IMG/VR virus record: IMGVR_UViG_3300012153_000089
Span: 1 to 64,000 of that record
DNA: 64,000 nucleotides
Reading direction: 5' to 3' (one strand)
Source of the DNA: a virus
Taxonomy: Duplodnaviria; Heunggongvirae; Uroviricota; Caudoviricetes
The notes under the pieces are model-generated. The model was not told the DNA's origin, did no database searches, and worked only from the letters and a program-made list of their open reading frames with translations. Positions 1,663 through 56,551 of this stretch are shown in pieces. The first letter of the stretch is position 1. Each line of letters opens with the position of its first letter. A program made the position numbers and the translations under genes.

Positions 1663-1709
1663 TCGCATGACTCAAGTGATATAGTTTATTATACCACAAA
1701 GTCATGCGA
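1663..1709 (-). promoter_or_regulatory. recombinase promoter (extended -10 TGGTATAAT) bracketed by a perfect 10-bp inverted repeat TCGCATGACT / AGTCATGCGA (27-bp spacer)
   Basis: inverted-repeat arms at 1663-1672 and 1700-1709. The -10 (plus attatacca, 1690-1698) lies in the spacer. A variant of the conserved AT element (GAGTGTTATTTTTTTATT) follows. Confidence 0.5.
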
Positions 1710-1793
1710 GTGTTATTTTTTTATTTAACTGATTTAACTAAAAATTCGTATTTTACTCCATTCAAATGAGCGATAAATTTGACGTTTTTCCTT

Positions 1794-2345
1794 TTACTCT
1801 TTTCCATATGTATTTATTGCCTCCATTATAAAGTCTTTTAAGTGATAGTGCCATCTCGTTCTAGGTTTATATCCTTTAATCTCGATTCCTATCTCATCGC
1901 ATATTGCTATTGAAATACTACTTTTATTTACTTTGCTTCTATATGTATGTTCCTTGATTTGATTCTGAGCTATGTTTTGATACTTCAAAAACTCTTCTAT
2001 ATGTATAAAGTACACTTTATTATCTGGCTCACGGAAATTCATTATGAAACCTGATATAACACCATCATATGTATTTGCTTCATTTAGTTTATCGATCTGA
2101 TGTTGCTTAATTACACTTTCTTGGAAGCTGATCGACTTATCCTTTGTTGATTTAAGTTCTAGTGTAAAAAGGTGGCTGTCCGCAAACATCATACAGTCAT
2201 AGTCATTCTTAGTTACCCTCACTCTGTTACGAAGATCTGGTGGAATAAAAGTGTCTTTCAAACGTGTAAAGAAGATCTTTTCTGCTCCTTGTGCTGCCGA
2301 CTTCTGAAAATCTTCTTCAAAAACCTTACCTAGATTTGTAGCCAA
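1794..2345 (-). CDS. recU: RecU-like Holliday-junction resolvase (PD-(D/E)xK nuclease)
   Basis: 183 aa. Segment NDYDCMMFADSHLFTLELKSTKDK...DGVISGFIMNF parallels B. subtilis RecU DYNGIYKGRYIDFEAKET...DGICFVIISAF. TTG start. Confidence 0.55.
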   Translation of the reverse strand: MATNLGKVFEEDFQKSAAQGAEKIFFTRLKDTFIPPDLRNRVRVTKNDYDCMMFADSHLFTLELKSTKDKSISFQESVIKQHQIDKLNEANTYDGVISGFIMNFREPDNKVYFIHIEEFLKYQNIAQNQIKEHTYRSKVNKSSISIAICDEIGIEIKGYKPRTRWHYHLKDFIMEAINTYGKE

Positions 2346-2360
2346 TCAATCATTCCTCTC

Positions 2361-2489
2361 TTATTTACCTTCTTGTTTATCAACTAGTAGCTGATTTAGT
2401 ACTGTATCAATTACTTCTTTATATTCTTCATTGGTCAATCTACGTCCAATAATCTGTTCAATCTTTGACTTACTAAACTTGTTCTCCAT
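2361..2489 (-). CDS. small hypothetical protein (42 aa, below ORF-track cutoff)
   Basis: ATG start preceded by GGAGGA at 7 nt spacing. Lies between polymerase and RecU-like genes. Coordinates approximate. Confidence 0.4.
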   Translation of the reverse strand: MENKFSKSKIEQIIGRRLTNEEYKEVIDTVLNQLLVDKQEGK

Positions 2490-2500
2490 TTACAATCCTC

Positions 2501-5500
2501 CTATACTTTAACTCTCTCTTGGGAGACTTTAATGTTCCCCTTATTATCAATCTTATCGATAAGCATTGTAGTATGCCTCACATTTGAATCCTTATATCTA
2601 TATGGTCTAAACTGTGATCCTCTTCGATATCCATGTAAAACAAGTTTATTCCCACGAGTAAACCAACTTTTCTCAAGAATCTCTTTTGAACCGTCAGACT
2701 TGGGTCTTGATACTTGCTTATTGTAGTTCGCAAATGCCCCATCATAATACTTAACTGTGACTACTCCATCCACCGTTAATAATGTAACTGTATTTTTATT
2801 CTTGTCTTTATCTAATACAGTTCCTGCTATTGTACTAAGCTTAAACTTAGGTCTGCTTCCGTAGCGCGATTCTATTGTTCCAACTACAACTGGGTCTTCA
2901 GGTAATTCTCCGTAATTAGTGATGCCATATCTCTCATTATCAATATCTTTAAGTTCATGTTCAGTATAGTAAAATGATAGTGAGTCCATTTCCCATTTAC
3001 TAATTGATCCATCTGCATATGTATTCCATTCATTCTGATACATCTTTTTATTGAACATTTCTAAGGCTCCTTCAGTAGCCAACCATTCCTTGATCCCTTC
3101 CATTTTCTTATCGTATTCCTTTTTGAAGGTTGACTCTTTAATGACTGGGAAGTTATTACTATACTCAACAATTCCCTCACCAGAAAAGTGTTCATAGTAG
3201 TATGGTGTAGAGACTTTATCAAGGACATAGAATTTTTCTTTGTCTCTCTTGATGAATACTCTTTTCATTACATATTTTCTAAAGTTGAAAGTCTTACTGT
3301 ATTTCTCCATGCCCTCCGGTATTAATTTGTTTTCAATAACAGCGTTGAGGTTTTGAAGATTGAGTTTGGTTTTCGGTGTGTACAGTAATGCAATAAAATC
3401 TTTCATAATCTCTATTCTGGAGCCATATTCCTCAAAGCACCCCGCCTTGATCAATTGAATAACTTGAGATTTCTTTATTGCAGAAGTCTTATACATTCGC
3501 TCAATGAAATCGTTAAAGTTTAAATATGGTCTATTCTTAATGATACTTTGTACCACTTCATCTCCAATACCATTGATACCTTTTAAACCGAATATAATCT
3601 GATCATTGTCTATATCAGGTTCAAATCCGAATCCTGCTTTATTGATGCTAGGCAAACCAATTCTCACACCTCTTGCTTGCATGTTACCGATAGCCGCTGC
3701 AATTTTACCGTAATTTGTTGATTGCGATTTATGGTCTTCTTCTTCACCATCATCATCAATTGAAGCTGAGTTTACTGTTAAGCAAGCCGTTCTCCAATAT
3801 ATTGGATCATAATTAATATTAAGATTGGCTTCTTGTAACGCTATAACTGAGTATGCTAAGGTGTGTAGCACTGAAAATGAATATGATAATTGTCTTGTTA
3901 TTTGTACATTCCAAACATAATCTAAAATTTCTTTTCTGATCCCTAAAGCCTCTCCATCACAAAAGAATTGCTCTTTGATTTCTTGTAGAGACTTCTTCAT
4001 TTGCTTTGGTTTAGCGATACTTTTTCTCAGTTTGTTGGCACTTTTAATATCAAAATTAGCAATACTACTATCCATTGATATCAACATTACGGATTCCTGA
4101 GTATCTGCTACACCATTTAACTTCAATAGATGTTTTTCCATAATTTTAATTTCATCATTATTCAAACCGTAATCGTGCATTTCTTTGTACCATAGATCAA
4201 TGTTATTTTTGTGTTTAACAAAAGTGTCAATCGGAGATTCCCCATGGTCACTTAGTAGTCGCATCAATGAATTAGCCGCTGCCAACTCAATAAGATTGGT
4301 CGGTTTAACTTTTTTTACTGTTTCGATTCCAATTTCAGTTGAAAATTGAAAAAGATCAGTTATACTATCTGAACCAATAAGATCGTAAACTCTCTGATTC
4401 TCAATATCTATAACGTTAGGATGTAAATACTTATTGTATGTATTTCTTATGCTACCTTGCCATTCCATAAGATTATTCTTGATTAATTTATCCATGGTTA
4501 CTCTAATCTTATCCAGAGCTTCAATTGTCAACAGATCAAACTTCATATTAGAAACAGCTTCACAATCTTCCAGTGATAACTGAGTGACGTGTGTCCCATT
4601 AGGTGCTGTCATCATAGCATTCGTTTTGTGGTATTCTTCATTAAACACAATAACTCCACTAGCATGAATGCTGCGTTTGTTGATTAATCCTTCTATTTTC
4701 ATTGAAACCTGAAGCCAATTTTCATGTTTATTGATTTCATCAACAAATTCTTTTACAGGTTTTCGTTCTTCTTCTTCATTCCCATAAAGACAGTCACTTA
4801 ATGTCCAGTTACTCCCACGCTCAAAAGGAATCAATCCAGATACATACATTGCTGTATCACTATCAACGCCCAAGCCCCTAGCTGCTGTTTGAACTGCTGA
4901 TTTGGATGCCTCTGTACCAAAAGTACATACTTGCAACACCCGATTTTCGCCAAAGTATTTCTTCAATTGTCTGAAAATTTGATTACGTTTAGCTGCTTCT
5001 GTATCTATATCCACATCCGGGAATTCGGGGCGTTCTGATGTTAAATGTCTCCAATGGGGCATTTCAATACCGTACTCCAGTGGGTTTATTTGTGTAATAC
5101 CCAACAAAAAACAAATCAAATAGCCAGCAGCAGAGCCACGAGAAGGCCCAACTAAACTGTTACCGCAATCGTCATCCCACATTACATTGACAATTTCTCG
5201 TACTGTAATGTAATAACTCGCAATAGATTGATTTAGATTCTCAGAGATTTTCCACAGTTCACCCAATTCTGTGTCAATCCGATTTGCTACTTCATGTAAC
5301 TTCTCTTTGCTATATGTATTGTAAGGGAGGAGTTCGTAAAATCCGTCTTCAATTAACTTAACAATATATCTGTCTTGGTCATTTGATGCGTGAGCCATCT
5401 TATTGATATATTCATACTTATTGTAAATCGATCTGAATAAACCTCTGAGTTGAAAATCGGGCAATTCAATTTTTGGAATGACTGTTGGTTTAAGAATCGT

Positions 5501-6445
5501 GTATTCTTGAATTTTTTCTCCTATTCTAACTGTATTGTCGAGAGCTCTTTTGACCACATCATGACTAAGATAGCTTAAACGTTCGTTGATCTCTTCATGA
5601 TTCTGTACAAATGTAGCTTCATAGAAGGCATCAACCTCTCTTTCACCTTCTTTTGCATTAAGGAATGCTTTATGAACGATTCTGTCTTCAGGTCTAAGAT
5701 AATGACTATCTGTTGTAACTATGTATTCAAGCCCAAACTTCTCAGCTAATTTAAGTAATTCCTTATTACAATAAATTTGTTCTTCACTATAAGCGGGTTG
5801 CAGTTCAAGATAAAAATCCTCTTTTCCAAATACATCTAAGCACCAATCTGTAAAGTCACACACTTTTTTATAAGCAACTTTTGCTTTATCTGTTTCCCCA
5901 GCGTCTAGATGGTGCTTCATTTCCAGTAATCCAATACAGTGAGGTGAACCAAGACATGCACTTGAAGCAATTAAATGACCGGGATCTTCATTAATAACTG
6001 ATTTAAGGAAGTCTTTAACTGTAGGAGTCCTTAGCATTGGCCCCGTAAAATATGATTGTCCCCAAGCTACCGAACTCATATATCGAAGCTGCTCATGCCC
6101 AATTTCATCCTTGGCTAAGAGAATGAAATGTGGGAATTTAGTTCGCCCACCAGATTTATAGTTGTCCCTAACTTCTTCAAGGCTATCTACTAGATAGATT
6201 TCATTACCGAGAATGAGCTTAAAGTCTTTATCAATCTTTCCTTTTTCCTTTAGTTTCTCTGTTGCTTGGATTGCTTTTACATGTGACGATACAGATTCAT
6301 GCTCTGTAAATGCCACACCCTTATGCCCCATATCGTGTACTGTTTGGATTAATTCTTCAACTCTGTTGGTGGTGTCCCTGAGCTTAAGATTAGAGCCCCT
6401 ATCGCTATGATTGTGAAGTAGTATCGAATTGCATTGATTACACAA
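2501..6445 (-). CDS. dnaE: DNA polymerase III alpha subunit (DnaE-type replicative polymerase)
   Basis: 1314 aa. N-terminal PHP domain (ILLHNHSDRGSNL...AFTEHESV) followed by polymerase core. TTG start with GGGAGGTG SD. Confidence 0.9.
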   Translation of the reverse strand: MCNQCNSILLHNHSDRGSNLKLRDTTNRVEELIQTVHDMGHKGVAFTEHESVSSHVKAIQATEKLKEKGKIDKDFKLILGNEIYLVDSLEEVRDNYKSGGRTKFPHFILLAKDEIGHEQLRYMSSVAWGQSYFTGPMLRTPTVKDFLKSVINEDPGHLIASSACLGSPHCIGLLEMKHHLDAGETDKAKVAYKKVCDFTDWCLDVFGKEDFYLELQPAYSEEQIYCNKELLKLAEKFGLEYIVTTDSHYLRPEDRIVHKAFLNAKEGEREVDAFYEATFVQNHEEINERLSYLSHDVVKRALDNTVRIGEKIQEYTILKPTVIPKIELPDFQLRGLFRSIYNKYEYINKMAHASNDQDRYIVKLIEDGFYELLPYNTYSKEKLHEVANRIDTELGELWKISENLNQSIASYYITVREIVNVMWDDDCGNSLVGPSRGSAAGYLICFLLGITQINPLEYGIEMPHWRHLTSERPEFPDVDIDTEAAKRNQIFRQLKKYFGENRVLQVCTFGTEASKSAVQTAARGLGVDSDTAMYVSGLIPFERGSNWTLSDCLYGNEEEERKPVKEFVDEINKHENWLQVSMKIEGLINKRSIHASGVIVFNEEYHKTNAMMTAPNGTHVTQLSLEDCEAVSNMKFDLLTIEALDKIRVTMDKLIKNNLMEWQGSIRNTYNKYLHPNVIDIENQRVYDLIGSDSITDLFQFSTEIGIETVKKVKPTNLIELAAANSLMRLLSDHGESPIDTFVKHKNNIDLWYKEMHDYGLNNDEIKIMEKHLLKLNGVADTQESVMLISMDSSIANFDIKSANKLRKSIAKPKQMKKSLQEIKEQFFCDGEALGIRKEILDYVWNVQITRQLSYSFSVLHTLAYSVIALQEANLNINYDPIYWRTACLTVNSASIDDDGEEEDHKSQSTNYGKIAAAIGNMQARGVRIGLPSINKAGFGFEPDIDNDQIIFGLKGINGIGDEVVQSIIKNRPYLNFNDFIERMYKTSAIKKSQVIQLIKAGCFEEYGSRIEIMKDFIALLYTPKTKLNLQNLNAVIENKLIPEGMEKYSKTFNFRKYVMKRVFIKRDKEKFYVLDKVSTPYYYEHFSGEGIVEYSNNFPVIKESTFKKEYDKKMEGIKEWLATEGALEMFNKKMYQNEWNTYADGSISKWEMDSLSFYYTEHELKDIDNERYGITNYGELPEDPVVVGTIESRYGSRPKFKLSTIAGTVLDKDKNKNTVTLLTVDGVVTVKYYDGAFANYNKQVSRPKSDGSKEILEKSWFTRGNKLVLHGYRRGSQFRPYRYKDSNVRHTTMLIDKIDNKGNIKVSQERVKV

Positions 6446-6600
6446 TTGTTTGAAGCACCTCCCATTTCATTTCTTGATCAAATATTAATTTCACATTTTA
6501 TTTTATTATAAACAGCTACACTCTTATCACCTTCTTTAGGTAGTATACTGGTGATTCAACAACATACTACTGGTTCGATACTCGTCACAATCTATGTATA

Positions 6601-6616
6601 GTAGGCCGAAGCCTAC
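6601..6616 (-). other. stable hairpin (GTAGGC-UUCG-GCCUAC on the transcript) immediately 3' of the parR-like stop
   Basis: Perfect 6-bp stem with UUCG tetraloop. No U-tract follows, so it is an RNA-stability or processing hairpin rather than a clear intrinsic terminator. Confidence 0.35.
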
Positions 6617-6617
6617 A

Positions 6618-6899
6618 TTAAAATGATTCGAACAATTCTTCCAACTTTTCCTCATATAGCTCTGTATCCTCTGATTGTTCTTGTTCCGGTTCACTCTGAA
6701 TAATGAATTCAACAGTTCCTTCATTAGTTGGACGGTTCAAATAAGTGTTGTGTGAGTAAGGCGTACTACCAAAGAACAGTAACCTAAGCGCTCTCCTTAC
6801 GACATCGCTCTTATCTTCATGTGGAGGTAGGTTTTTCCAAGCTTCGCGTAGATCTTCATCTTTAATCGGTCTTAATCTTGCTCTTGCCGCTATTTCCAT
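6618..6899 (-). CDS. ParR-like adaptor / small DNA-binding partner of the actin-like ATPase
   Basis: 93 aa, basic N-terminus (MEIAARARLRPIK) and acidic C-terminus. Start overlaps the ParM-like stop by 10 nt, indicating translational coupling. The call rests on position. Confidence 0.4.
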   Translation of the reverse strand: MEIAARARLRPIKDEDLREAWKNLPPHEDKSDVVRRALRLLFFGSTPYSHNTYLNRPTNEGTVEFIIQSEPEQEQSEDTELYEEKLEELFESF

Positions 6900-7834
6900 G
6901 ATTTTTTACCTATCTTCCCGTATCCTCTCACTTGAGCCAACTGATCCATCAAGACTTTGTTAGGTAAATCTAAGTAATCAAAGATATAACGAGCAGCTCC
7001 ACCAGCAATTAAATATATGTCAAATTCCGTATTCAGACTTTCAATTTCATTCTTAATCTGTAAAGCTAAAGATTTAAATGCTCTTCTAATCAAAGGAACA
7101 ATGTTGTGCCCTTGGTATTTACCTGAGATCACGTATGGGTCTAATTCGTAAATTGCAGGAGTATGTCCAGTTAATTTTTGTATGTAAGTTTGCAGTAGTG
7201 TGTAGGCTTTCTCAACCCCAACCAATACACTTTTTGACTCTTTCATTATTGTTGACTTATCAAAACCCAATAAGTTTAGAGTGTAAAACCCCAAGTCTGC
7301 CGTAAGTATTTTTTTCTTTGCTTCTTTTAATCTGATGATCTTTCCATCGTCGTCTAGCAAATAATCCATTGTAATACCCAAACCCTGTGGAACCGTCTTG
7401 CACCTTTCAACGATGGGTTGTACTGGGTAACTCTTCCCTTTACCCTTGCGAATTTTATATTCTCCTTGATCGGCTAAGCCAAGTAGTTTTTCCTCGAATG
7501 GAGCTTTTTGTGTGAAGTAAAAGTTAATGGGTAGCCCACTGACCAAATTCACTTTATCTTTTTTTGCTAAGTATCCCAAAGTGGTCTTCATAACAACATC
7601 GCTAGTTTCGGCTTCAGCCTTTTTGTTGTTTAGTGAGAAGTACTTTATGTCACTGAATTCTAGTGCAACATTCCCCACAAATAGTTCATCATTATAGACG
7701 AAATGATCTGATTTAATATTTTGATCAAACATGTCTTTTGCTTCTCCTACTATTGTGGGCTGACGATAAAATTTTCCGTCTCTTTCTGCTTTGGTCCATT
7801 TAAAACCCAGATCTAAGTTCAGTATATTGCTCAA
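6890..7834 (-). CDS. actin-like segregation ATPase (ParM/Alp/StbA family)
   Basis: 314 aa. Actin-fold motifs LDLGFKWTKA (phosphate 1), ILTADLGFYTLNL (phosphate 2) and IYLIAGGAARYI (adenosine). TTG start with GAGGAGG SD. Confidence 0.75.
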   Translation of the reverse strand: MSNILNLDLGFKWTKAERDGKFYRQPTIVGEAKDMFDQNIKSDHFVYNDELFVGNVALEFSDIKYFSLNNKKAEAETSDVVMKTTLGYLAKKDKVNLVSGLPINFYFTQKAPFEEKLLGLADQGEYKIRKGKGKSYPVQPIVERCKTVPQGLGITMDYLLDDDGKIIRLKEAKKKILTADLGFYTLNLLGFDKSTIMKESKSVLVGVEKAYTLLQTYIQKLTGHTPAIYELDPYVISGKYQGHNIVPLIRRAFKSLALQIKNEIESLNTEFDIYLIAGGAARYIFDYLDLPNKVLMDQLAQVRGYGKIGKKSWK

Positions 7835-7858
7835 AGTGATACAACCTCCTCTAAAGTC

Positions 7859-7907
7859 ATGTACACATTGGTTCCTATCTTAGATAGTTTGGTATATCTG
7901 TGTACAT
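7859..7907 (-). promoter_or_regulatory. nested palindromic site in the parM leader (candidate ParR operator / parC-like site)
   Basis: ATGTACACA (7859-7867) pairs with TGTGTACAT (7899-7907) as perfect 9-bp inverted repeats. They enclose a second palindrome CTATCTtAGATAG (7875-7887). Located 25-73 nt upstream of the parM start, downstream of promoter copy 1. Confidence 0.45.
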
Positions 7908-7927
7908 TTGTAGCCTCTATAAGAATG

Positions 7928-7974
7928 ATTGTATCATCTAATTTTTAATTTGTATAGTGTTATTTTATTATTAT
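7928..7974 (-). promoter_or_regulatory. sigma-A-like promoter (TATACA-17-TGaTACAAT) with conserved upstream element, copy 1
   Basis: Plus-strand AGTGTTATTTTATTATTA at 7957-7974. On the gene strand this element abuts the -35. The extended -10 TGnTACAAT lies at 7928-7936. Confidence 0.5.
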
Positions 7975-8096
7975 ATAAATGAATAATGCTATATTTAACA
8001 CCGACAATAACAATGCCAAATACATAACGAAATATATCTCTATGACACTTTTCAAATACTTCTTCTTGTGAATCTTATTAATTATCCGCTTAAGCA
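7961..8096 (-). CDS. 45-aa peptide, basic N-terminus and hydrophobic C-terminus (possible small membrane or toxin-like peptide)
   Basis: MLKRIINKIHKKKYLKSVIEIYFVMYLALLLSVLNIALFIYIIIK. GGAAGGAG SD 10 nt upstream. The stop overlaps the conserved promoter element. Coordinates approximate. Confidence 0.3.
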
Positions 8097-9051: not shown

Positions 9052-9054
9052 CTT

Positions 9055-9832: not shown

Positions 9833-10486
9833 TTATGCAAATGCTGGAGCTAATTTCTTCACACTACTTTTAAAATATTGATGCGCGGCCTGTCTCGTTA
9901 CATTCATTTCTCTGCCAATATCAGAAATACTCATACCATCGAAAAAATACTTACGAGACACAATCTTCTCTTTTGGGGTTAATTTACGTTCAATATGTCC
10001 ACTTAGTACATTGTCAAACATAGAGTCTTCAACAGCAATCAAGTCAAGATGACTATCGTCTGCCAATATTTCCGACAATAATTTTTCGCTGTCTCCAGAG
10101 TTTGTCTTGTAAAGATTGTTATCCATACTAATGCTGCTATATTTGCTACGACACTTCATACCTTTTGCTCTGGCATTTGCTGAGAACTCCCTTACAACCA
10201 CCTTTGCTAAATAAGTGGAGAATTTAATATTCTTAGAGTGGTCATATGTATCATAAGCTTTTATTAGTCCAACCATCCCCATACTAACTAACTCATCTGG
10301 TTCTTCATGTGAGCCGCTAGTTAACGTCTTGTTAGCCAATTTGACTACAAAATGCATGTTGTTTTTGATAATTTTGTCTTTTAATTCTTTGTCTCCTGTC
10401 TCTTTTGCTAGTTTAATCATTTCTTCATTGTTAAAATTTACGATACGCTTCTCCAGTTTGATGCTTATTTTCATTGTCTCCACCAT
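9833..10486 (-). CDS. sigma-70 family RNA polymerase sigma factor (SigF/SigG-like, phage-encoded)
   Basis: 217 aa. Region 2 (DELVSMGMVGLIKAYDTYDHSKNIKFSTYLAKVVVREF) and region 4.2 HTH (MSISDIGREMNVTRQAAHQYFKSSVKKL). Confidence 0.8.
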   Translation of the reverse strand: MVETMKISIKLEKRIVNFNNEEMIKLAKETGDKELKDKIIKNNMHFVVKLANKTLTSGSHEEPDELVSMGMVGLIKAYDTYDHSKNIKFSTYLAKVVVREFSANARAKGMKCRSKYSSISMDNNLYKTNSGDSEKLLSEILADDSHLDLIAVEDSMFDNVLSGHIERKLTPKEKIVSRKYFFDGMSISDIGREMNVTRQAAHQYFKSSVKKLAPAFA

Positions 10487-18180: not shown

Positions 18181-18216
18181 AAAAGAAAAAGTACAGGTTC
18201 TCTTTAACCTGTACTT
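18181..18216 (-). terminator. rho-independent terminator (AAGUACAGGUU-loop-AACCUGUACUU followed by UUUUUCUUUU)
   Basis: perfect 11-bp stem and 6-nt loop on the gene strand, followed by a T-tract. Lies between dfrA and the CPBP gene. Confidence 0.7.
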
Positions 18217-18260
18217 AGTCTAACATCTATTTTATTGATAATCAAGTGTTATTTTATCAT
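18217..18260 (-). promoter_or_regulatory. conserved element plus sigma-A-like hexamers (TTGATT-17-TAGACT), copy 2
   Basis: plus-strand AAGTGTTATTTTATCAT at 18244-18260, immediately 3' of the dfrA stop. Confidence 0.45.
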
Positions 18261-18261
18261 T

Positions 18262-24519: not shown

Positions 24520-24565
24520 AGTATATTTCACAATAAATTATTAGTCAATGTTATTTTATCATTTA
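24520..24565 (-). promoter_or_regulatory. conserved element plus sigma-A promoter (TTGACT-17-TATACT), copy 3
   Basis: plus-strand CAATGTTATTTTATCATT, immediately 3' of the 24574 gene stop. Confidence 0.55.
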
Positions 24566-26145: not shown

Positions 26146-26352
26146 CTATTCGTTACGTGCAATTCCAGCATTAGCCCAGAATACGACTTGTTCAAGATTT
26201 GTCATTGCCAATGATTTCTCACGACTATTTGGGACTGATTCTTCCAAAAGATATGCCAATTCTTTTGCTGCATTTCGGATTTGTTCATACTTTTGAGGCT
26301 GTCCTTCTTTTGGAGAATGGTAAGAAAAGTTGTTTTCAATTTGTGGATTCAT
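26146..26352 (-). CDS. hypothetical protein (68 aa)
   Basis: packed ORF. Confidence 0.4.
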   Translation of the reverse strand: MNPQIENNFSYHSPKEGQPQKYEQIRNAAKELAYLLEESVPNSREKSLAMTNLEQVVFWANAGIARNE

Positions 26353-36146: not shown

Positions 36147-36326
36147 TCCAAATCGTCCATAGTGATAATTTCTCTGTAATAATATTCAGGAGTAATTTTC
36201 ACTAACCCTTCAGCTAATTCCCAACTCAATTCCTTCCCTATTACATCTCCGTTGATTGTTTCATCTTGCCATTCAACCACTGCATATTTTGTATCCACAT
36301 ATGAGCCTCCTTTCTCTAAGAAACTC
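36147..36326 (-). CDS. small hypothetical protein (59 aa, GTG start, below cutoff)
   Basis: AAAGGAGG SD 7 nt before the GTG. Coordinates approximate. Confidence 0.35.
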
Positions 36327-36340
36327 TTCTTTTACTTGCT

Positions 36341-36769
36341 TTAGTTACTATTATATAGAACCATTATTTCTTTAAGATTCTTGATTTCAGAACTCCATCT
36401 TTCGTCTTTATTCCTCTCTTGAATGTTTTTTATTTCCAGTGGGATTTGAGCAACACCCTCTTCTACAATCCTATTCCAAGTCTTGTTTATTGGTAATGTC
36501 ACAATCCCATACTCCGTATAGCTCACTGTTTTTTGCATTGCAAGCGCAACCTTCATTGCTGTTTCGGCGTTTCTTGTATATTTTTGCTTGCCGAAATATT
36601 CTACAAGTCTAGCTGAAACCATTTCTTTTCTTTGATTAAAATCTTCAAATGACCACCATAGATTATCAATTGCAAAAGCATGAATAATTCGATATTGATC
36701 TTTTGTTTTCAAAATATAAATCCCATTATCAGCACTCATTAACACTTCTCCTTTTCTTATGAAATTCAA
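36341..36769 (-). CDS. hypothetical protein (142 aa)
   Basis: packed ORF. Confidence 0.5.
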   Translation of the reverse strand: MNFIRKGEVLMSADNGIYILKTKDQYRIIHAFAIDNLWWSFEDFNQRKEMVSARLVEYFGKQKYTRNAETAMKVALAMQKTVSYTEYGIVTLPINKTWNRIVEEGVAQIPLEIKNIQERNKDERWSSEIKNLKEIMVLYNSN

Positions 36770-36782
36770 ATTTTACTTAGAT

Positions 36783-37064
36783 TCAATTCTCGTCTTGATC
36801 GCTATTGCTTTCTACAATCATCCAATCTTCTGCAAAAATGTCCATCTGTGATGGAAACCAAGGTGCAAACTTATTGTTCGCAGTTTTTATTTCTATGTAA
36901 GGTACATGTTCAAAGTCACTGCTATTGCCATCACTTGAGAATGGCGAAGATGGTGGAGTAACCTTATGCAACCACACTCCTTTTTCAACCCATCCTTCGC
37001 GCGCTACCATATTCCAATCATCTTTCTTCATATAATCAATCGCTTGACCAAAATTCATTTGCAA
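36783..37064 (-). CDS. DUF2829-type small phage protein (candidate Tad2-like anti-Thoeris sponge)
   Basis: 93 aa. N-terminus MNFGQAIDYMKKDDWNMVAREGW matches the characteristic MxFGEAlxalKxGkkvaRxGW signature of this family, from memory. Confidence 0.45.
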   Translation of the reverse strand: MQMNFGQAIDYMKKDDWNMVAREGWVEKGVWLHKVTPPSSPFSSDGNSSDFEHVPYIEIKTANNKFAPWFPSQMDIFAEDWMIVESNSDQDEN

Positions 37065-37121
37065 TACTCTCTCTCCTGTTCTTTATGAAATCCAACCTTT
37101 ATAACATATTACGTTATTTTA

Positions 37122-37370
37122 TTATTTATTGAGTTTGAAAAATTCTTTTTTGCAACAAATCCAGAACGAAAAGTTTTCTTTTCCGTTGTCATCTACTATG
37201 TATGTTTCACTATCAATGCTCGCATTCTTTGCATATTTCTTAACTTTCATCTCGTAGAGTTTTCCAATGGTTACTGGCATTTCCCTAAGCTTGGCTAATA
37301 TTTTGACATGTGTTGCCTCCTCACTGGAGTCAATTTTCATCAAATCAGATTCGCTTATTGCAGCATACAT
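37122..37370 (-). CDS. hypothetical protein (82 aa)
   Basis: first gene after promoter copy 4. Confidence 0.5.
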   Translation of the reverse strand: MYAAISESDLMKIDSSEEATHVKILAKLREMPVTIGKLYEMKVKKYAKNASIDSETYIVDDNGKENFSFWICCKKEFFKLNK

Positions 37371-37399: not shown

Positions 37400-37443
37400 A
37401 TTATAAACTTATATTACAGTAAGTCAAGTGTTATTTTATTATT
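37400..37443 (-). promoter_or_regulatory. conserved element plus sigma-A promoter (TTGACT-16-TATAAT), copy 4
   Basis: plus-strand AAGTGTTATTTTATTATT at 37426-37443. Confidence 0.6.
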
Positions 37444-43449: not shown

Positions 43450-43494
43450 ATCTTATCATGCAATAAAATTAAATTCAAGTGTTATTTTATTATT
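43450..43494 (-). promoter_or_regulatory. conserved element plus sigma-A-like promoter (TTGAAT-17-TAAGAT), copy 5
   Basis: plus-strand AAGTGTTATTTTATTATT at 43477-43494, overlapping the stop of the HTH gene. Confidence 0.5.
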
Positions 43495-43774
43495 AATAAT
43501 GATTTATTTCAATCTTTATATCTAACGCCAACGCCAACTTAATCAACACTTCAATACTTGGAATATCATCATCCTTGGCTAAATAAATGATAGATTTCTC
43601 GCTAACCTGTGCTTTCAAAGCGAGATCAGCACTACTAATTTCCTCATCTTGTTGCTTTCTAAGAATAGCTACGGTAAGTTTAGCTGACAATGAGATCATC
43701 TTTTTTCTAACTTCTGAAGCATAATCGAGTGACTCTTTAATTTCAGTCCATCTTTTATGGTTTATGTCTATCAT
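43493..43774 (-). CDS. XRE-family HTH transcriptional regulator
   Basis: 93 aa. HTH segment ISSADLALKAQVSEKSIIYLAKDD. Confidence 0.65.
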   Translation of the reverse strand: MIDINHKRWTEIKESLDYASEVRKKMISLSAKLTVAILRKQQDEEISSADLALKAQVSEKSIIYLAKDDDIPSIEVLIKLALALDIKIEINHY

Positions 43775-45675: not shown

Positions 45676-46032
45676 TTAATCAAAAAGCAAACGAGCAATT
45701 TCAACCAACTTCTTCTTTTTGACTACAGTCATTTCCTTGTCTCTATACAATAGATCACATCTTAAAAATTCTTCGCTGGTTAGTTCAATTACCTTCGGTT
45801 CAGGAATCTTCACACTTTCAGCAGAAATGGCTACACCAGTAATGACCCAATCAATAGTTACATTATAAAGGCTACACAGCTTAGCCAAAGATTGATAGTC
45901 TGGTTCACTAGTCCCAACTTCATATCCACTAAGGGTTTTGTTATTGATTCCGATTTTTTCATAAACCTCAATCTGTGTAAGATTTATATGCTTTCTTGCT
46001 TTCTTTAGTCTCTCACCGATGGCATGATCCAT
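45676..46032 (-). CDS. XRE-family HTH transcriptional regulator (Cro/CI-like)
   Basis: 118 aa. HTH ERLKKARKHINLTQIEVYEKIGINNKTLSGYE. Confidence 0.7.
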   Translation of the reverse strand: MDHAIGERLKKARKHINLTQIEVYEKIGINNKTLSGYEVGTSEPDYQSLAKLCSLYNVTIDWVITGVAISAESVKIPEPKVIELTSEEFLRCDLLYRDKEMTVVKKKKLVEIARLLFD

Positions 46033-47806: not shown

Positions 47807-47858
47807 TTTAATTTTCCCCTTTCTCCGTGAAAGACTAATTTTACTTTCTCTTATTACC

Positions 47859-47886: not shown

Positions 47887-48000
47887 CACAATATCGTATG
47901 TATAAAAGAACTGCGTCTCTTGTCGTTAACAACATATAACTTTTTATTTGTTAATGTTATTTTATTATCTTTATTCTTAAAAGTCAAGTAACAAATCACT

Positions 48001-50601: not shown

Positions 50602-50602
50602 A

Positions 50603-50636
50603 CAAAAAAAGGGCTCTTTAATGAGCCCCTTCTTTG
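50603..50636. terminator. bidirectional rho-independent terminator (GGGCTC-tttaat-GAGCCC flanked by A- and T-tracts)
   Basis: sits between the convergent genes at 50116..50601 (+) and 50658..50882 (-). Confidence 0.7.
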
Positions 50637-50657
50637 TAAAACTTGTCTTTCATCAAA

Positions 50658-50882
50658 TCATAGAAACTCAACTGCCTTGACAATTCGATTAACGATATCA
50701 AGTGGAGTAAATCGATGTCCATCATCTGAAACATAGAAAACTCCTTTTCCTGCTTGTGTAGCAATTGCTGTCAAAACAACCTCGCCTTGAGTGAAGGATG
50801 GATATCCATAAACGAATAACCCCACTACTTTAATTTTCGTACCCACAGCGCGCTCGTTTAAAAGATCTTCTAGTTTTTTCAT
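50658..50882 (-). CDS. hypothetical protein (74 aa)
   Basis: AGAGGAG SD. Confidence 0.5.
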   Translation of the reverse strand: MKKLEDLLNERAVGTKIKVVGLFVYGYPSFTQGEVVLTAIATQAGKGVFYVSDDGHRFTPLDIVNRIVKAVEFL

Positions 50883-51388
50883 CAGTATCGCTCCTCTTTT
50901 TTTAATATCTTAATCTTATACTCTTTACAGGTGTTCAACAAAGCAGTCAGAAGTAAGTCTAATTAGAATCATAAAAGGAGAAACATAATAGTACACTTTT
51001 ATCTATATTAATCTTAGAATTTAGCCAATTTTCGCATGAAAGCGTCCATTTTTGCCTTAACCGTTAAATCTATATGTAATATCTAATTCAAAGTCATGCT
51101 GCGGTTTCAAATTGTAAAGCGTCTTGCCTACTTTACGTACATGTCTACAGCAATTACCTGTCTCTCCTCTAAATAATATTGAATCGTTGTAGCACTGCAA
51201 TTAAAACAAATGATATCATCATCACATAAAAATATGCCTTATGCGAAAATTTTGATTTGTTAGTGAAACTTATAAAACGGCTCGGTAGATATATTAACAC
51301 CATCGTTCCCAACATACCTAAGGCTGCATTGAAGAAATTAATCAGAATCTATATCTCCTTTCTCTTCGAAATGTTCATTTTATCAAAA

Positions 51389-51616
51389 TCAACGCATGTC
51401 TTCGCGCTGCTCAATATATCCTTTGAAATACTCCCAATTTCTATCTAATTCATTTATATTGTTGGATATGTATCTCTCTGCAACTCCATCTTCAACAAGT
51501 CCCTGATCAGACATTTGAAACATTATCTCAATTTTGCTCACCATCTCTAAAAAATTTTGAGCATATCCTTTTGCATGATTTAGTCGATATTGATTCAGAC
51601 CATGTTTACCTTTCAT
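51389..51616 (-). CDS. hypothetical protein (75 aa)
   Basis: packed ORF. Confidence 0.45.
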   Translation of the reverse strand: MKGKHGLNQYRLNHAKGYAQNFLEMVSKIEIMFQMSDQGLVEDGVAERYISNNINELDRNWEYFKGYIEQREDMR

Positions 51617-51649
51617 TGGCTGTCTTCTTCCTCTCTTAGCGTTTTTTGT

Positions 51650-51817
51650 TTAAACTAAAGCATTGATAATACTCTTGGCAACTTCTGAAATGCAAACAGG
51701 ACAAATATGGTGTGGTTTTTCTTTATCACTGAGACCCAATATAAACATTGCTTCTTGTCCACATTCGCAATATTCACCTGTTCCTCTGGGTGGATCGACA
51801 ACATATATATTTCTCAT
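51650..51817 (-). CDS. zinc-ribbon small protein (about 55 aa, below cutoff)
   Basis: CECGQEA...CPVC. Coordinates approximate. Confidence 0.35.
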   Translation of the reverse strand: MRNIYVVDPPRGTGEYCECGQEAMFILGLSDKEKPHHICPVCISEVAKSIINALV

Positions 51818-51841
51818 AGATTTCTCCTTAAAATATGTATT

Positions 51842-52195
51842 TCATTCAATTACTGATATCTTAATCTCTTTTCCTTTTAGACGATCTAGAATTACCCCAA
51901 TTGAAGTGCTTCCAATAATGTGATCTGTAACAATGCCTCTTGAAGGTGTAACTTTACCTGTGTACTGAACATTACCTGAGAAATCTTCGTCATCAATGAC
52001 TATGGATTTTCCATTTTGTTTATCCAGCTCATTTGCCACTTGATTAAATTCATTGGCGATACTTCTGAGATCCCCGGCACTCCATGTGTTATTCGTTAAA
52101 CTAATCTTGCTAACAAGTCGATGTGGGAATCCTGTTTGTTTTACTATTTTTCCTTTTATAAATCTACCCTCAACTTTAATCTCATTACTAAACAA
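51842..52195 (-). CDS. hypothetical protein (about 117 aa; start uncertain)
   Basis: the long ORF to 52288 overlaps the upstream gene. GAGGAGG SD precedes ATG 52204 and TTG 52195. Confidence 0.45.
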   Translation of the reverse strand: MFSNEIKVEGRFIKGKIVKQTGFPHRLVSKISLTNNTWSAGDLRSIANEFNQVANELDKQNGKSIVIDDEDFSGNVQYTGKVTPSRGIVTDHIIGSTSIGVILDRLKGKEIKISVIE

Positions 52196-52775
52196 GCGCA
52201 GCATCCTCCTCAGATACCCATTCAAGATAATTGGTATGATTTCGATCCTTCTTATGTTTGAAGCCCAACTTCTCCAAAACATAATCATAGAAAGGCTTAT
52301 AGTTATAGTTGTCAGTTCTGATATCTTTAGTTAAGTATGGTGACGTATCAGAAGGGTGCTTATAATAATGAACCCTTAAATAATATCGTTCCCCATAATT
52401 ATCTCCTCCAAGTACTCTTATACACAATACAGCATATTTATTTTCTGATTGAGGAATCCAAACGTAGTGATGAGAATGAAAACTACCATCTGGATCATTT
52501 CTTAACTTCTCAATCTGATAAAGACATTCATCTCTAACTTCATATGTATATCGTTCATTGTCAGGAGCATAGTTAAAACTCTTCGGGATTTCGTATTGAA
52601 CACCATTAATATCTACTGTTTTAAGTTTACTATTTAATCGTCGTTCTTCCTCTTCAATCTTATGCTTTAACTTGTACATTTCTTCACTAATACCCTTTTT
52701 TGCTGTTTTGCTATTTACATTTCCGTAATCCATTTTTGCTTGTTCGTACTCGTTCTTCATTTCTACTAGCTCCAT
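52188..52775 (-). CDS. hypothetical protein (195 aa)
   Basis: N-terminal coiled coil, His-rich segment SFHSHHY. Confidence 0.5.
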   Translation of the reverse strand: MELVEMKNEYEQAKMDYGNVNSKTAKKGISEEMYKLKHKIEEEERRLNSKLKTVDINGVQYEIPKSFNYAPDNERYTYEVRDECLYQIEKLRNDPDGSFHSHHYVWIPQSENKYAVLCIRVLGGDNYGERYYLRVHYYKHPSDTSPYLTKDIRTDNYNYKPFYDYVLEKLGFKHKKDRNHTNYLEWVSEEDAALV

Positions 52776-52808
52776 TTTCTGCCTCCTTATTGTTCTCTTT
52801 GAATTTGA

Positions 52809-53063
52809 TTAGATCAACTCAACAATGATTTTTCGAATGGCTTTTGGCTCCAAACAATCTCCATAGAAGTCCCATGAAGTATTTTCATCCATTAATTCAT
52901 TAAACATGTGTTCTGCAAACTCTCTCTCCATTTTCTCAGCTTGATAGAAATAATCCTGTTTAAATGATCCTACATGGATATCAGTGTCTGACTCTTGTGT
53001 AAATTGAACAAATTCACCATTTTTCAGTTCAATCAAAAATTTCTCAACTTTCATATATGCCAA
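52809..53063 (-). CDS. hypothetical acidic protein (84 aa)
   Basis: packed ORF. Confidence 0.45.
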   Translation of the reverse strand: MAYMKVEKFLIELKNGEFVQFTQESDTDIHVGSFKQDYFYQAEKMEREFAEHMFNELMDENTSWDFYGDCLEPKAIRKIIVELI

Positions 53064-53154
53064 TCTCCCTTATACTCTTATTTTCTCTCATTTACTGCAT
53101 CATTCATTGACTGATTTCTTTATGAAACACGCATTTCGTATGCTTTCTACTTTT

Positions 53155-53460
53155 CTATTCATTGACATTAAGACTTATAGAATGTGATCCATAGCCATCA
53201 TCTCTGAGCACTGCCTCTTCGAATACTCCTCCGTCATGTATCTCGTTGGTGTCACACCATATCTCAACGATCTTTCTGCCTTTAAACTTATTTAATTTTG
53301 TCCATACTTCTCTCGTATCGGTATCTGTAGTAATTCGGCAACCATCATCACATGATGTTATATTTATAATTTGTAAATTATTCATATGTTCATTTTCTGG
53401 CGGTAACGATATTTGTCTAAATCCAGATTGATAGATAAAGAATAGCGGTTTCTCAGTCAT
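53155..53460 (-). CDS. hypothetical protein (101 aa)
   Basis: packed ORF. Confidence 0.45.
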   Translation of the reverse strand: MTEKPLFFIYQSGFRQISLPPENEHMNNLQIINITSCDDGCRITTDTDTREVWTKLNKFKGRKIVEIWCDTNEIHDGGVFEEAVLRDDGYGSHSISLNVNE

Positions 53461-53509
53461 TGTTATCTCCTCTTTCTAATTGAAATAGACCTTTCATATG
53501 GTATTACAC

Positions 53510-53770
53510 TCAAACTTTATCATGTCGATTTCTCACAAAACAATCTCTTAAACATTTGTTTATTCTGGTCTCAATGTCCAAGTCATTATCTTCCCATTGA
53601 TTTTGATAGATATTTCTCCAACCTATAAACCATTTATACTTTTCAAAAATCTTCAGTTTATAGACGGTTTTATAGTAACTGACTCCACTAATTCTTTGTG
53701 TGTTTACACGTTGTTCTTTAATTTCAAGTCTGTAGTTCTTTCCATTTTCGTTCCAATGTTTTTTGTACAT
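53510..53770 (-). CDS. hypothetical protein (86 aa)
   Basis: packed ORF. Confidence 0.45.
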   Translation of the reverse strand: MYKKHWNENGKNYRLEIKEQRVNTQRISGVSYYKTVYKLKIFEKYKWFIGWRNIYQNQWEDNDLDIETRINKCLRDCFVRNRHDKV

Positions 53771-54143
53771 TTTCTCGTTTCTCCTTTAGTACTGTCATAT
53801 CATATCCAGACTCAATGAATCGAATTGTCTTGTTTCTGTTACAATCATTCCCTAAGTATGTATAAATCTCATCCATATCTTCATAAGTGAAACTTGTCTC
53901 CAAATACTCATTGATGATTGCCCTGAATCTCTTTTGCCAATACAAACTAACTCCCTTGCAGCTTGGTCTTGAAAGCCACGCCAACACTTTTCGCTTAATG
54001 TCAAAATCAGACTCCACATCGCTGAGTAAAAAATAAATATTATTTTTGGGTTCTATGATTAGCTCAAACTTAGAGTTGATGAAACAGTTGGGAGAGTGTC
54101 GTTCTGCAATTCTCATAAACTTTTGAATTTCAAATAGATTCAT
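53724..54143 (-). CDS. hypothetical protein (139 aa)
   Basis: packed ORF. Confidence 0.5.
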   Translation of the reverse strand: MNLFEIQKFMRIAERHSPNCFINSKFELIIEPKNNIYFLLSDVESDFDIKRKVLAWLSRPSCKGVSLYWQKRFRAIINEYLETSFTYEDMDEIYTYLGNDCNRNKTIRFIESGYDMTVLKEKRENVQKTLERKWKELQT

Positions 54144-54149
54144 ATACTC

Positions 54150-54605
54150 TTATGGCTCCCATCTGTACAATGTCACTTCATAATCACTGAACACTTCTTC
54201 AATAATTCCATAAACAACTTTCCAGTTTCCATTAGCTAATCCACAACCAATGTTGTATGGCAATGCAACTGAATAACCAAACTTTTTAGCACGTATTTTC
54301 AATGAATCAAGCGCAGCCCTCAATGCATCATAATCTGTGTATACAATGTTCTTATTTCTTCCGTATGTAGTTTGTCCGAATAAATTTGCTATAACTCTCT
54401 TTTCATTTACCTTAGTCGTCCAACATAGCCCCAGTAATCTATCACCATATTCGTGACATGCTAACTGGTAAAACGGATAAGCATCTGGGTACTTCTGTTT
54501 AATTGCTTTAGCTATTCCTGAGCCCCATACACCCTTTGTATTTGTTTGATGTCCTATAATGTCCTCTGTTGCATTGAGTAAATCTCCATCAATTACTTTT
54601 ATCAT
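54150..54605 (-). CDS. macro-domain protein (ADP-ribose binding or processing)
   Basis: 151 aa. DIIGHQTNTKGVWGSGIAKAI parallels the macro-domain DIIVNAAN...GGGV motif. Confidence 0.7.
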   Translation of the reverse strand: MIKVIDGDLLNATEDIIGHQTNTKGVWGSGIAKAIKQKYPDAYPFYQLACHEYGDRLLGLCWTTKVNEKRVIANLFGQTTYGRNKNIVYTDYDALRAALDSLKIRAKKFGYSVALPYNIGCGLANGNWKVVYGIIEEVFSDYEVTLYRWEP

Positions 54606-54826
54606 TCTAATTCCTCCAATGCTCCTTCTAAGCTTTCGATTTCGCCCCAGCCATATTTATAATAGAAATTCTGACTATTGTCATGACTGTCAATGTATAG
54701 CTCGTAGTAGTCTTCACCTTCTTCGTTGCAGCCATTCGACCACCACAAATCTACAACTTCGTGATTTGTTCTAAAACTTACGATGTGTCTAGTTACTTCT
54801 GGCAGTCCATTCAACTCAATAAACAT
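54602..54826 (-). CDS. hypothetical protein (74 aa)
   Basis: 4-nt overlap with the macro-domain gene. Confidence 0.45.
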   Translation of the reverse strand: MFIELNGLPEVTRHIVSFRTNHEVVDLWWSNGCNEEGEDYYELYIDSHDNSQNFYYKYGWGEIESLEGALEELE

Positions 54827-54855
54827 ATTCTTCTCCTTTCTCCATGAAACGTGCC

Positions 54856-55029
54856 TTTTACTTAGAGTAGTGTATATTTAAAATCTTCAATATTTTCTCT
54901 GCCTCTTCTTCATTATAAAAAGTTGCTACTAGTTGATCCTGTGTGTCATGATCGCGGAAAGTTCCTTCTTTTTCATAAAGTTCGATCTCACCTTTTCTAC
55001 TTATTTCAATAAAATATAAATCATTCATG
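54856..55029 (-). CDS. small hypothetical protein (57 aa, below cutoff)
   Basis: AAGGGTGA SD at 6 nt. Coordinates approximate. Confidence 0.35.
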
Positions 55030-55087
55030 AGCATCACCCTTTTTCATAGTGTTTCTTGCAATGTTATCAAGAGTAGGTGAGATAACT

Positions 55088-55243
55088 AGATGCCTAAAAT
55101 GTCCTCTAAACTAATTTCTCGCTTTCCATTTCCAATAACTATGTAAAACCCGGGGTTGTCTGATTTCTCTTCTACAGTAGCTCCATGTGACTTTGCCAGT
55201 TGAATAATTTCCTCATTAGATAACTCAATCTCATTTTTCACTT
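55088..55243 (-). CDS. small hypothetical protein (51 aa, GTG start, below cutoff)
   Basis: GGAGGT SD at 7 nt. Coordinates approximate. Confidence 0.3.
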
Positions 55244-55284
55244 GGTTACCTCCATTCTAATTTTGATAAAACAGATCTTTTACT

Positions 55285-55755
55285 TCAACTTTCATCTTCA
55301 AGTTCCCAATTTGCTTCGACATAAATATTATATTTTTGGTAGATAGCAACTTGTACCTCTGCTAAAAGTCTTCCTAGCTTTGGATGATCTTCACCAAAGG
55401 TCACAGTAAAGTAAAATAGTCCATTTAACATTTTAAAATTTACTGATTTTGCTCCTTCTATGTTGGCAAACATAGAGGCAACTTTATCAATTTTTGAAGA
55501 GAACTTTTGGCTTTTTATTTTCGCCTTGTTCAACGCTTGAGATGCTCCAACTAATATCTCACACCATTCCTCTAAGATATGTTGAACCCAATATTCTGGA
55601 GGATAGTGTCCAATAAAATCTGGATCTTCTTTTAACATTTCATTAAACGACGACTTATGTACTAAGGGAATAACCAATTCTTTTTCAAGAAGAAGGGTGT
55701 CTTGCATATACTCTATAACGAGATCATCATAAGTTCTTGCTTTTAATTCGCTCAA
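55285..55755 (-). CDS. hypothetical protein (156 aa)
   Basis: TTG start. Confidence 0.5.
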   Translation of the reverse strand: MSELKARTYDDLVIEYMQDTLLLEKELVIPLVHKSSFNEMLKEDPDFIGHYPPEYWVQHILEEWCEILVGASQALNKAKIKSQKFSSKIDKVASMFANIEGAKSVNFKMLNGLFYFTVTFGEDHPKLGRLLAEVQVAIYQKYNIYVEANWELEDES

Positions 55756-55758
55756 ATT

Positions 55759-55914
55759 TTATTCATTCTCCTTTAAGACTCTGAAGATTTCAGGATACAT
55801 ATATATAATCACATCTATTATTTCGATTTGTTTTTTCTTGCTATTTCTACTTATAGCCTCAACACTTTCTCTATTGCCAACTTCTACATTTAATTCTTTA
55901 GCAAGCATCAGCAT
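55759..55914 (-). CDS. small hypothetical protein (about 50 aa, below cutoff)
   Basis: coordinates approximate. Confidence 0.3.
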   Translation of the reverse strand: MLMLAKELNVEVGNRESVEAISRNSKKKQIEIIDVIIYMYPEIFRVLKENE

Positions 55915-55959
55915 CCTTTCAATCCGATCTTGACCCAACTATGTATCGCATCCTCTCTA

Positions 55960-56003
55960 ATAAAAAAGGTGATATAACAACTCGTTAAAGTCATCATATC
56001 ACC
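55960..56003 (-). terminator. terminator-like hairpin (GGUGAUAU...AUAUCACC followed by UUUUUU) overlapping promoter copy 7
   Basis: 8-bp stem, 20-nt loop, T-tract. Confidence 0.45.
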
Positions 56004-56037
56004 ATAATATATAGATGTAAAGTGTTATTTTATCATT
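55993..56037 (-). promoter_or_regulatory. conserved element plus sigma-A promoter (TTTACA-17-TGaTATGAT), copy 7
   Basis: plus-strand AAGTGTTATTTTATCATT at 56019-56037, immediately 3' of the 56039 gene stop. Confidence 0.55.
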
Positions 56038-56038
56038 A

Positions 56039-56551
56039 TTAATTAATTCTAATATGCTTTTTATCCTTTACAAGAAGGACACCTTCAACTGCAATACCAC
56101 TTTTCACATCATTCAATAAAGCTTTACTGTCAATCTTCGGATCTTGAGCTGTCTTGTATTTATCTGGAACCTTTCTGGGGTCAACAATATTGATTGATGG
56201 AGGATTTGTTTGTAGTTTAATTTTAAATGTTCCAGCATGCACTTTCTCAAGATTATTTCTTTGAAGATATTCCTGTAAAAGTTTCTTCAAACGCTCTTGT
56301 TTATTCTCCATATATTTGCGCTTCTTACTAAAACGCTCCTCCTCAAGTTTGTAAGCTGCAATATCTCCTTCGAGATTCCGTACGAACTTTACGATGTTCT
56401 CGCATTTATTCTCAACACCGTCCTCAAGTGCTTCCAATGTGTCTTTGTACATCTCAAAATCATCTTCACCAATTTCTTCGTTCTCCATAGCTGCTTCAAG
56501 ATATTCGGTTAAAAATTTATAGTCCTCAGACAATTTGTAAAGTGATGGCAT
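56039..56551 (-). CDS. hypothetical coiled-coil protein (170 aa)
   Basis: packed ORF. Confidence 0.5.
   Translation of the reverse strand: MPSLYKLSEDYKFLTEYLEAAMENEEIGEDDFEMYKDTLEALEDGVENKCENIVKFVRNLEGDIAAYKLEEERFSKKRKYMENKQERLKKLLQEYLQRNNLEKVHAGTFKIKLQTNPPSINIVDPRKVPDKYKTAQDPKIDSKALLNDVKSGIAVEGVLLVKDKKHIRIN

Follow-up and report, generated by a model that had tools for sequence, protein, structure and literature searches.

In the temperate Bacillus phage SPbeta, the repeated element SPBRE (SPbeta repeated element; Lazarevic et al. 1999, as cited in PMC4191935) is found in about ten early promoter regions, where it is bound by the master repressor MrpR/YopR, as was established by chromatin affinity precipitation sequencing, electrophoretic mobility shift assays and reporters (Kohm et al. 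2023, PMC10516654). Here a repeat of comparable kind is described in a 64,000-nt stretch of phage DNA (positions 1 to 64,000 of IMG/VR record IMGVR_UViG_3300012153_000089; hereafter the window), in which an A/T-rich block, AATRATAAAATAACAC(T)T on the gene strand, recurs at the promoters of early operons. The copies are probably (at about 60%) operator-promoter units of an MrpR-family repressor in a distant SPbeta-like prophage. The element is most likely a remote counterpart of the SPBRE/MrpR operator system, divergent in sequence, and not a new kind of element; the operator role of SPBRE is experimental in SPbeta, whereas that of the element is predicted.

By its gene content, the window belongs to a distant SPbeta-like prophage: its 1314-aa polymerase shares 55% identity with SPbeta YorL, and about a dozen window open reading frames (ORFs) have SPbeta homologues, including YotM, LigB, UvrX, a helicase, a primase and RecJ. 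The window also codes for RNR, ThyA and DHFR. A megablast search of the public phage collection with 8 kb of the window returned no match, and relatives were therefore sought through proteins. Every named host of the relatives identified by way of the Gp157-like, primase, ThyA and MrpR proteins is Paenibacillus, which is probably the host genus of this phage as well.

The likeness to SPbeta extends over several features. As with SPBRE, asymmetric and A/T-rich copies (about ten) are placed at early-operon promoter regions of a large SPbeta-type temperate phage, and a core AAATAAYAY is common to both elements; moreover, as in SPbeta, an MrpR-family (tyrosine-recombinase-fold) protein is encoded next to a YopQ-like gene, and one of the sites adjoins a communication module located after or near mrpR. 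The two systems differ in sequence (AATRATAAAATAACAC here versus ACAAATACAAATAATATGTATAT in SPbeta) and in placement, as the block here lies upstream and abuts the −35 while the SPbeta site is in the spacer/−10 region or downstream of the promoter. They also differ in host genus and in overall relatedness, the MrpR proteins being only 26% identical and homologues in SPbeta being limited to the dozen or so ORFs mentioned above. What is distinctive with respect to SPBRE is the placement abutting the −35 and the existence of lineage-specific variants.

The pattern AAGTGTTATTTTATYATT, with up to three mismatches allowed, had 8 matches in the window versus 0.78 expected by chance, a number reached in 0 of 100 shuffles. 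All eight matches to this pattern are on the plus strand; since nearly all window ORFs are carried by the minus strand, the copies are co-oriented with transcription, as are the SPBRE sites in SPbeta. A weight matrix built from the eight copies and run over both strands of the window found one additional weak copy (37109–37126) and no match on the opposite strand, which agrees with the single orientation proposed in an earlier note on this DNA. That note had listed at least nine same-orientation copies, eight of which were recovered (some of them a few bases away from the positions given), whereas the ninth, at about 10645, fell below the threshold and could be aligned only with an insertion or deletion. 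The information content of the alignment columns delimits a block of 17–18 nt with sharp edges, conserved far better than the −35 and −10 hexamers that come after it. The short core AAAATAACAYT, with one mismatch, was not enriched (15 matches in the window versus 11.8 expected), and thus the signal needs the full block. Beyond the window, a scan of IMG/VR with a 14-nt core gave single chance matches only and an exact 36-mer (element plus promoter) had no match in the GTDB species-representative genomes; Rfam had no match in the window. Besides the eight canonical copies and one weak copy inside the window, three further copies were found outside it in L004, an identical contig that runs past the right end of the window, and in L125, a near-identical relative. 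All copies in the window and in these two contigs are co-oriented with genes except one, which follows mrpR.

A generic promoter-consensus scan of the AT-rich window was not enriched over shuffles, and significance was hence tested at a fixed offset to the element, with a match threshold of at least 8/12. At this offset 6 of the 8 copies have a sigma-70-type −35/16–17/−10 match, compared with 1.7% of background positions (binomial P=7e-10), so that the element does run into a sigma-A-type promoter, as had been claimed. In these six, the promoter starts at the final one or two bases of the block, with TTGACT, TTGATT, TTGAAT, TTTACA or TATACA as the −35 hexamer; the spacer is 16–17 nt and a TGn extension is frequent. 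The remaining two copies (1708 and 47952) overlap promoter-like sites through their own ATAACA or TAAAAT. Viewed from the promoters, the element is present at 7 of the approximately 11 best intergenic minus-strand promoter candidates in the window. Information content across the copies revealed no second conserved block at −10 distance, and promoters for a phage sigma factor were rejected on this ground.

A block phased to the −35 in six of eight copies, A/T-rich and located at −52 to −36, might be no more than a UP element fused to the −35, contacted by RNA polymerase through its alpha-subunit C-terminal domain (alpha-CTD) for promoter strength and served by no dedicated regulator. The A-rich composition and the position in the −40s to −50s are those of UP elements, and the stretch at −46 to −38, AAAATAACA, fits the consensus of the proximal UP subsite, AAAAAARNR (PMC4132738), at 8 of 9 positions; a core AAAATAAYAC is moreover common to all the related phages. 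UP elements are degenerate, however, while here a genome keeps 17 nt almost unchanged from copy to copy, conserved C positions included, and the comparison with relatives revealed that the 5′ hexamer differs between close genomes at orthologous promoters.

The canonical element is absent from relatives whose primase or ThyA is 74–95% identical. In its stead, each of these relatives carries a block of its own that occupies the same position and abuts the −35 of sigma-A-type promoters, and hence the earlier expectation that the element should occur in related genomes holds for the position and not for the canonical sequence. The block is TAATTACACTAAAATAAYAC in IMG/VR contig 2879469214_000003 (c2879) and TTAAAAYACAAAGATAATAC in contig 2770939580_000003 of P. 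barcinonensis CECT 7022 (c2770), and further lineages have other versions; the P. barcinonensis version, AAATACAAAGATAATAC, is closer to SPBRE than is that of the window. In the sampled DNA, 10–12 co-oriented block copies are present per relative genome, plus one inverted copy after mrpR, and all the related Paenibacillus lineages have the core AAAATAAYAC in common. Three orthologous promoters (those at 56020, 18244 and 7955) were aligned between the window, c2879 and c2770. The upstream coding end, −35, −10, leader and terminator are conserved in these alignments, yet the 5′ part of the block is specific to the genome rather than to the locus and matches the paralogues in the same genome. Homogeneity within genomes, divergence between genomes and the inverted copy in a leader together predict a phage-specific DNA-binding protein and are hard to reconcile with a generic UP element. 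The placement of some copies also argues against a UP element: the inverted one lies in a transcribed leader, in every lineage, where UP function is impossible; between the L004 3388 copy and its −35 there is a displacement of about 5 nt; and those at 1708 and 47952 overlap the −35 or −10 rather than lie upstream of it. A UP element and nothing more is accordingly quite improbable. The UP-element/−35 unit put forward in the earlier note is borne out by its position and the 8/9 subsite match, and contradicted by the inverted leader copy and the genome-specific 5′ hexamer.

The candidate for such a protein is encoded outside the window: no YopR was identified within it when its ORFs were compared with SPbeta by tblastn, while L004 encodes a 345-aa protein with PF22822 (MrpR_N_CB) and PF22823 (MrpR_C_cat) domains that matches SPbeta MrpR at the above 26% identity (E=2e-20). 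Its gene is located about 9 kb past the window's right end, that is, upstream in the direction of transcription, and is preceded in near-identical relatives by the YopQ-like gene. Directly after the mrpR terminator is a promoter (TTGACT-17-TGaTATATT), and at about +5 to +26 of it the inverted copy AATAATAAAATAATATGTATCT, the left part of which is the element and the right part of which agrees with the SPBRE core AAATAATATGTATAT in 14 of 15 positions. This mrpR-proximal copy is found in every lineage at the same place, about +5 to +26, with the phage-specific 5′ part retained and always with the SPBRE core ATAATATGTAT at its end. Another copy, co-oriented (the displaced one at L004 3388), comes before the next early operon.

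The neighbourhood of mrpR holds two further loci. The module directly downstream (L004 967–2268, about 7–8 kb beyond the right end of the window; L125 5150–6450) is conserved and is under the promoter with the inverted operator; it consists of a 213–215-aa membrane protein, an AgrB-family protein and a 44–47-aa ORF, and looks like an agr-like peptide-signalling cassette. It sits where SPbeta has the arbitrium genes aimR-aimP, which are also MrpR-controlled. In the lysogeny module of L125, a PemK/MazF-family toxin gene (1754–2222) is located upstream of mrpR and the yopQ-like gene, and the element copy AATGATAATATAACATTA comes before this toxin gene; the placement recalls the link of MazEF to the lysis-lysogeny switch of SPbeta and phi3T.

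The earlier note had also raised a binding site for a phage regulator, and this is the better-supported of its ideas, given the MrpR homologue, the lineage-specific blocks at orthologous promoters and the inverted copy by mrpR. From the sequence and by analogy with SPbeta, we infer both that MrpR is the binder and that its binding represses. MrpR is favoured for four reasons: the precedent of SPbeta, the conserved site beside mrpR, the SPBRE-like core of that site, and the occurrence of SPBRE and MrpR in SPbeta without a homologue of the sigma factor that this phage encodes. MrpR is 53–56% identical between these phages, versus up to 93–97% for many backbone proteins, and MrpR pairs that are at least 70% identical have common operator types (the window and L127, L188 and L202, L189 and L191, c2879 and c2770).

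Several observations weigh against assigning the block to MrpR. The SPBRE consensus itself had 17 matches in the window versus 12 expected and was not enriched, and thus the element is not simply SPBRE; besides, the SPbeta site is not placed upstream of the −35 as this block is. The covariation of operator and repressor is partial, for the operator of the Paenibacillus sp. QZ-Y1 prophage, WATGATAAAATAATAY, equals that of the window at 15 of 16 positions although the MrpR proteins are only 52% identical, and the QZ-Y1 MrpR is closer to that of P. barcinonensis c2770 (68%) than to that of the window's phage. No sub-region, segment or residue cluster of MrpR was found to track operator type. As the core is a good UP subsite, part of its conservation may reflect contacts with RNA polymerase. 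Finally, another protein that has diverged between relatives could bind the block; the sigma-70-family protein of ORF 9833–10486 is one that is unusually diverged. The chromosome of strain QZ-Y1 (NZ_CP196836.1; L197 and L198) carries two MrpR-family genes 1.2 Mb apart, with products 52% and 51% identical to the MrpR described here, which suggests that this strain hosts two SPbeta-like prophages of different immunity type.

Some of these points would fit a block that binds a different phage-encoded regulator, repressor or activator, such as a small immunity-region protein or a factor that acts together with the sigma-70-family protein. A lineage-specific block homogenized within genomes needs some phage-specific factor and does not name which; operator type is not fully predicted by MrpR identity; and several immunity-region ORFs have diverged between relatives, as has the sigma ORF. 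The latter (minus strand; Sigma70_r2 above the Pfam cutoff, Sigma70_r4 just below) is only 49–51% identical in two relatives, against about 77–84% for neighbouring genes. A site centred near −44 is also in a classical activator position. Near-consensus sigma-A promoters with TG extensions should need no activator, however, and the second conserved block at −10 distance that a phage-sigma promoter would need was not seen. No other immunity-region protein was found to track operator type. The window encodes a helix-turn-helix HTH_3 protein at 45676–46032, and a second ORF at 43493–43774 has only a weak, sub-threshold HTH_3 match; neither is matched by a homologue in the sampled DNA of relatives that have this class of element. 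The mrpR-proximal site, with its SPBRE-like core, favours MrpR, and SPbeta manages with SPBRE and MrpR without this sigma. A regulator other than MrpR is on balance unlikely.

Short asymmetric sites in one orientation are also known as the stoperators of L5 and other cluster A mycobacteriophages, which are bound by the repressor gp71, lie in intergenic gaps, are phage-specific and define immunity groups. The element resembles them in its many one-orientation, short, asymmetric and phage-specific sites in short intergenic gaps. Stoperators are mostly within operons without a promoter and block elongation, and gp71 is a helix-turn-helix protein; in contrast, all eight canonical copies here overlap or abut a sigma-70-type promoter match and the predicted repressor is the tyrosine-recombinase-fold MrpR.

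If the copies are indeed MrpR-family operator-promoter units, each would combine a host sigma-A promoter (−35, 17 bp, often TGn, −10) with a conserved asymmetric site at −52 to −36, in which a phage-specific 5′ hexamer, AATRAT, precedes the core AAAATAAYAC that is common to the relatives. In the lysogen, the MrpR-family master repressor on these sites would block the contacts of sigma region 4 and the alpha-CTD and so keep every early operon silent. Terminators that overlap some of the units would stop read-through and leave each operon dependent on its own repressible promoter. Upon induction, the same A-rich core may act as a proximal UP subsite for strong early transcription. A dual role of the core, as repressor site in the lysogen and alpha-CTD contact after induction, is plausible from its sequence and position. 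More tentatively, the site may embody a bipartite code in which the core doubles as UP subsite and the 5′ hexamer, rewritten in concert at the ~10–12 early promoters, sets the immunity specificity of MrpR; the repressor would then compete with the alpha-CTD, and heteroimmune types would arise by coordinated change of operator and repressor on a shared backbone.

The individual copies, all on the minus strand when read with the genes, differ in how they meet their promoters. The copy AATAAAAAAATAACACTC at 1708–1725 is upstream of the large serine recombinase gene at the left end of the window (1–1635, minus strand; its stop codon is exactly at 1–3), which thereby has an element-bearing promoter of its own; the element's own ATAACA is here the −35 of ATAACA-17-TGgTATAAT (1688–1716). 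At 7955–7972, the copy AATAATAAAATAACACTA is followed by TATACA-17-TGaTACAAT (7928–7956) and is upstream of a ParA-like/ribbon-helix-helix (RHH)/DNA polymerase operon. The copy AATGATAAAATAACACTT at 18244–18261, immediately 3′ of the DHFR stop codon, leads into TTGATT-17-TGtTAGACT (18217–18245), while AATGATAAAATAACATTG at 24546–24563 leads into TTGACT-17-TATACT (24520–24548) upstream of the RNR/ThyA/DHFR nucleotide-metabolism operon. The weak copy at 37109–37126, AATAATAAAATAACGTAA, scores 13.7 bits versus 21–26 for the others and is upstream of a Tad2-like gene. The sequence AATAATAAAATAACACTT occurs twice. At 37426–37443 it is followed by TTGACT-16-TATAAT (37400–37427), which matches the consensus at 11 of 12 positions and is the top match of that region. 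At 43477–43494 it is followed by TTGAAT-17-TGaTAAGAT (43450–43478), and it overlaps the stop codon of ORF 43493–43774; a second candidate promoter, TTGAAA-17-TAAAAT (43484–43512), takes the element's TAAAAT as its −10. The same holds for the copy GATAATAAAATAACATTA at 47952–47969, which is without a good downstream promoter and for which the candidate is TTGACT-17-TAAAAT (47959–47987). Finally, AATGATAAAATAACACTT recurs at 56020–56037, 1 nt 3′ of the stop codon of the Gp157-like gene, followed by TTTACA-17-TGaTATGAT (55993–56021). A distance of 0–35 nt past a stop codon had been claimed for all copies and applies to six of the eight, those at 1708 and 7955 being about 68 nt and about 160 nt past the preceding long ORF, respectively.

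Two of the units overlap intrinsic terminators on the minus strand, which confirms the hairpins noted before and identifies these two copies as marks of transcription-unit boundaries. The hairpin at 18189–18216 (ΔG about −15 kcal/mol, followed by a T-run) begins 2 nt past the −10, such that the predicted start site is within its 5′ arm, and is also kept in relatives. That at 55968–56003 (16-bp stem, ΔG about −18 kcal/mol, T6) contains the −10 hexamer within its 5′ arm, a promoter/terminator overlap found in the same arrangement in two relatives. These terminators would be expected to stop read-through from upstream and not transcripts begun at the promoters themselves. In placing early promoters at cassette boundaries, some of them beside a hairpin, the units recall the promoter-early stem-loop (PeSL) of T4-like phages, and the block has accordingly been considered as a boundary linker that promotes cassette exchange between phages by recombination. 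The copies are at operon boundaries, the phages are strongly mosaic, and the genes just 3′ of the copies at 37426 and 43477 are variable or absent in relatives. Nevertheless, a lineage-specific block would offer no homology between different phages, and what is conserved between phages is the core promoter and the terminator rather than the block. The hairpins are ordinary intrinsic terminators and accompany just two of nine copies. In identity profiles against two relatives, a limited sample, mosaic breakpoints did not fall consistently at copies, and no evidence was found of recombination junctions mapping to the element. Cassette shuffling of this sort, which the earlier note had suggested, is thus very improbable.

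Other features of the window were recorded along with the repeat. The GC content is 33–38% throughout, with strongly negative GC and AT skew, which fits one long minus-strand gene array. A ParA-like partition ATPase (6618–7834, minus strand) shares a gene array with the large serine recombinase; a small ORF in this array is RHH-like by eye, with no family match found. Two minus-strand ORFs are anti-defence candidates: 26146–26352, with an Acb2/Tad1 hairpin domain (E=2e-21), and 36783–37064, with a Tad2-like domain (E=1e-17), the latter being downstream of the weak copy at 37109.

A second repeat, unrelated to the first, is also located at gene junctions (36309–36337, 36750–36778, 47818–47846, 54835–54863, 58833–58861, 61967–61995 and 63648–63676, with looser copies at, for example, 9791, 44831 and 59879). 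Its gene-strand form is (K-stop)AAGTAAAA-N7-9-(C)TTTCAy-GGAGAAAGG-N6-8-ATG. TTTCA is found just upstream of the Shine–Dalgarno sequence in 13 of 124 genes, about threefold the chance rate, and CTTTC can pair with the Shine–Dalgarno GAAAG to form a small hairpin. The repeat is present in the P. barcinonensis relative as well (L129 524–558 and 1364–1398), and may serve as a translational operator, as an RNase site or as a cassette linker.

In the literature searched, MrpR and SPBRE have been described experimentally only for the Bacillus phage SPbeta. If the MrpR-family reading is true, the same logic would operate in a distant clade of Paenibacillus prophages, in which a repeated asymmetric site lets one recombinase-derived master repressor govern about ten scattered early promoters. 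The copies would then mark eight to nine early transcription units within 64 kb that are otherwise unannotated, and their compact promoter/terminator/operator modules are possible repressible parts for Paenibacillus or Bacillus. The comparison of lineages gives predictions of immunity groups among these prophages, and the natural series of operator variants would provide a lead on how MrpR reads DNA.

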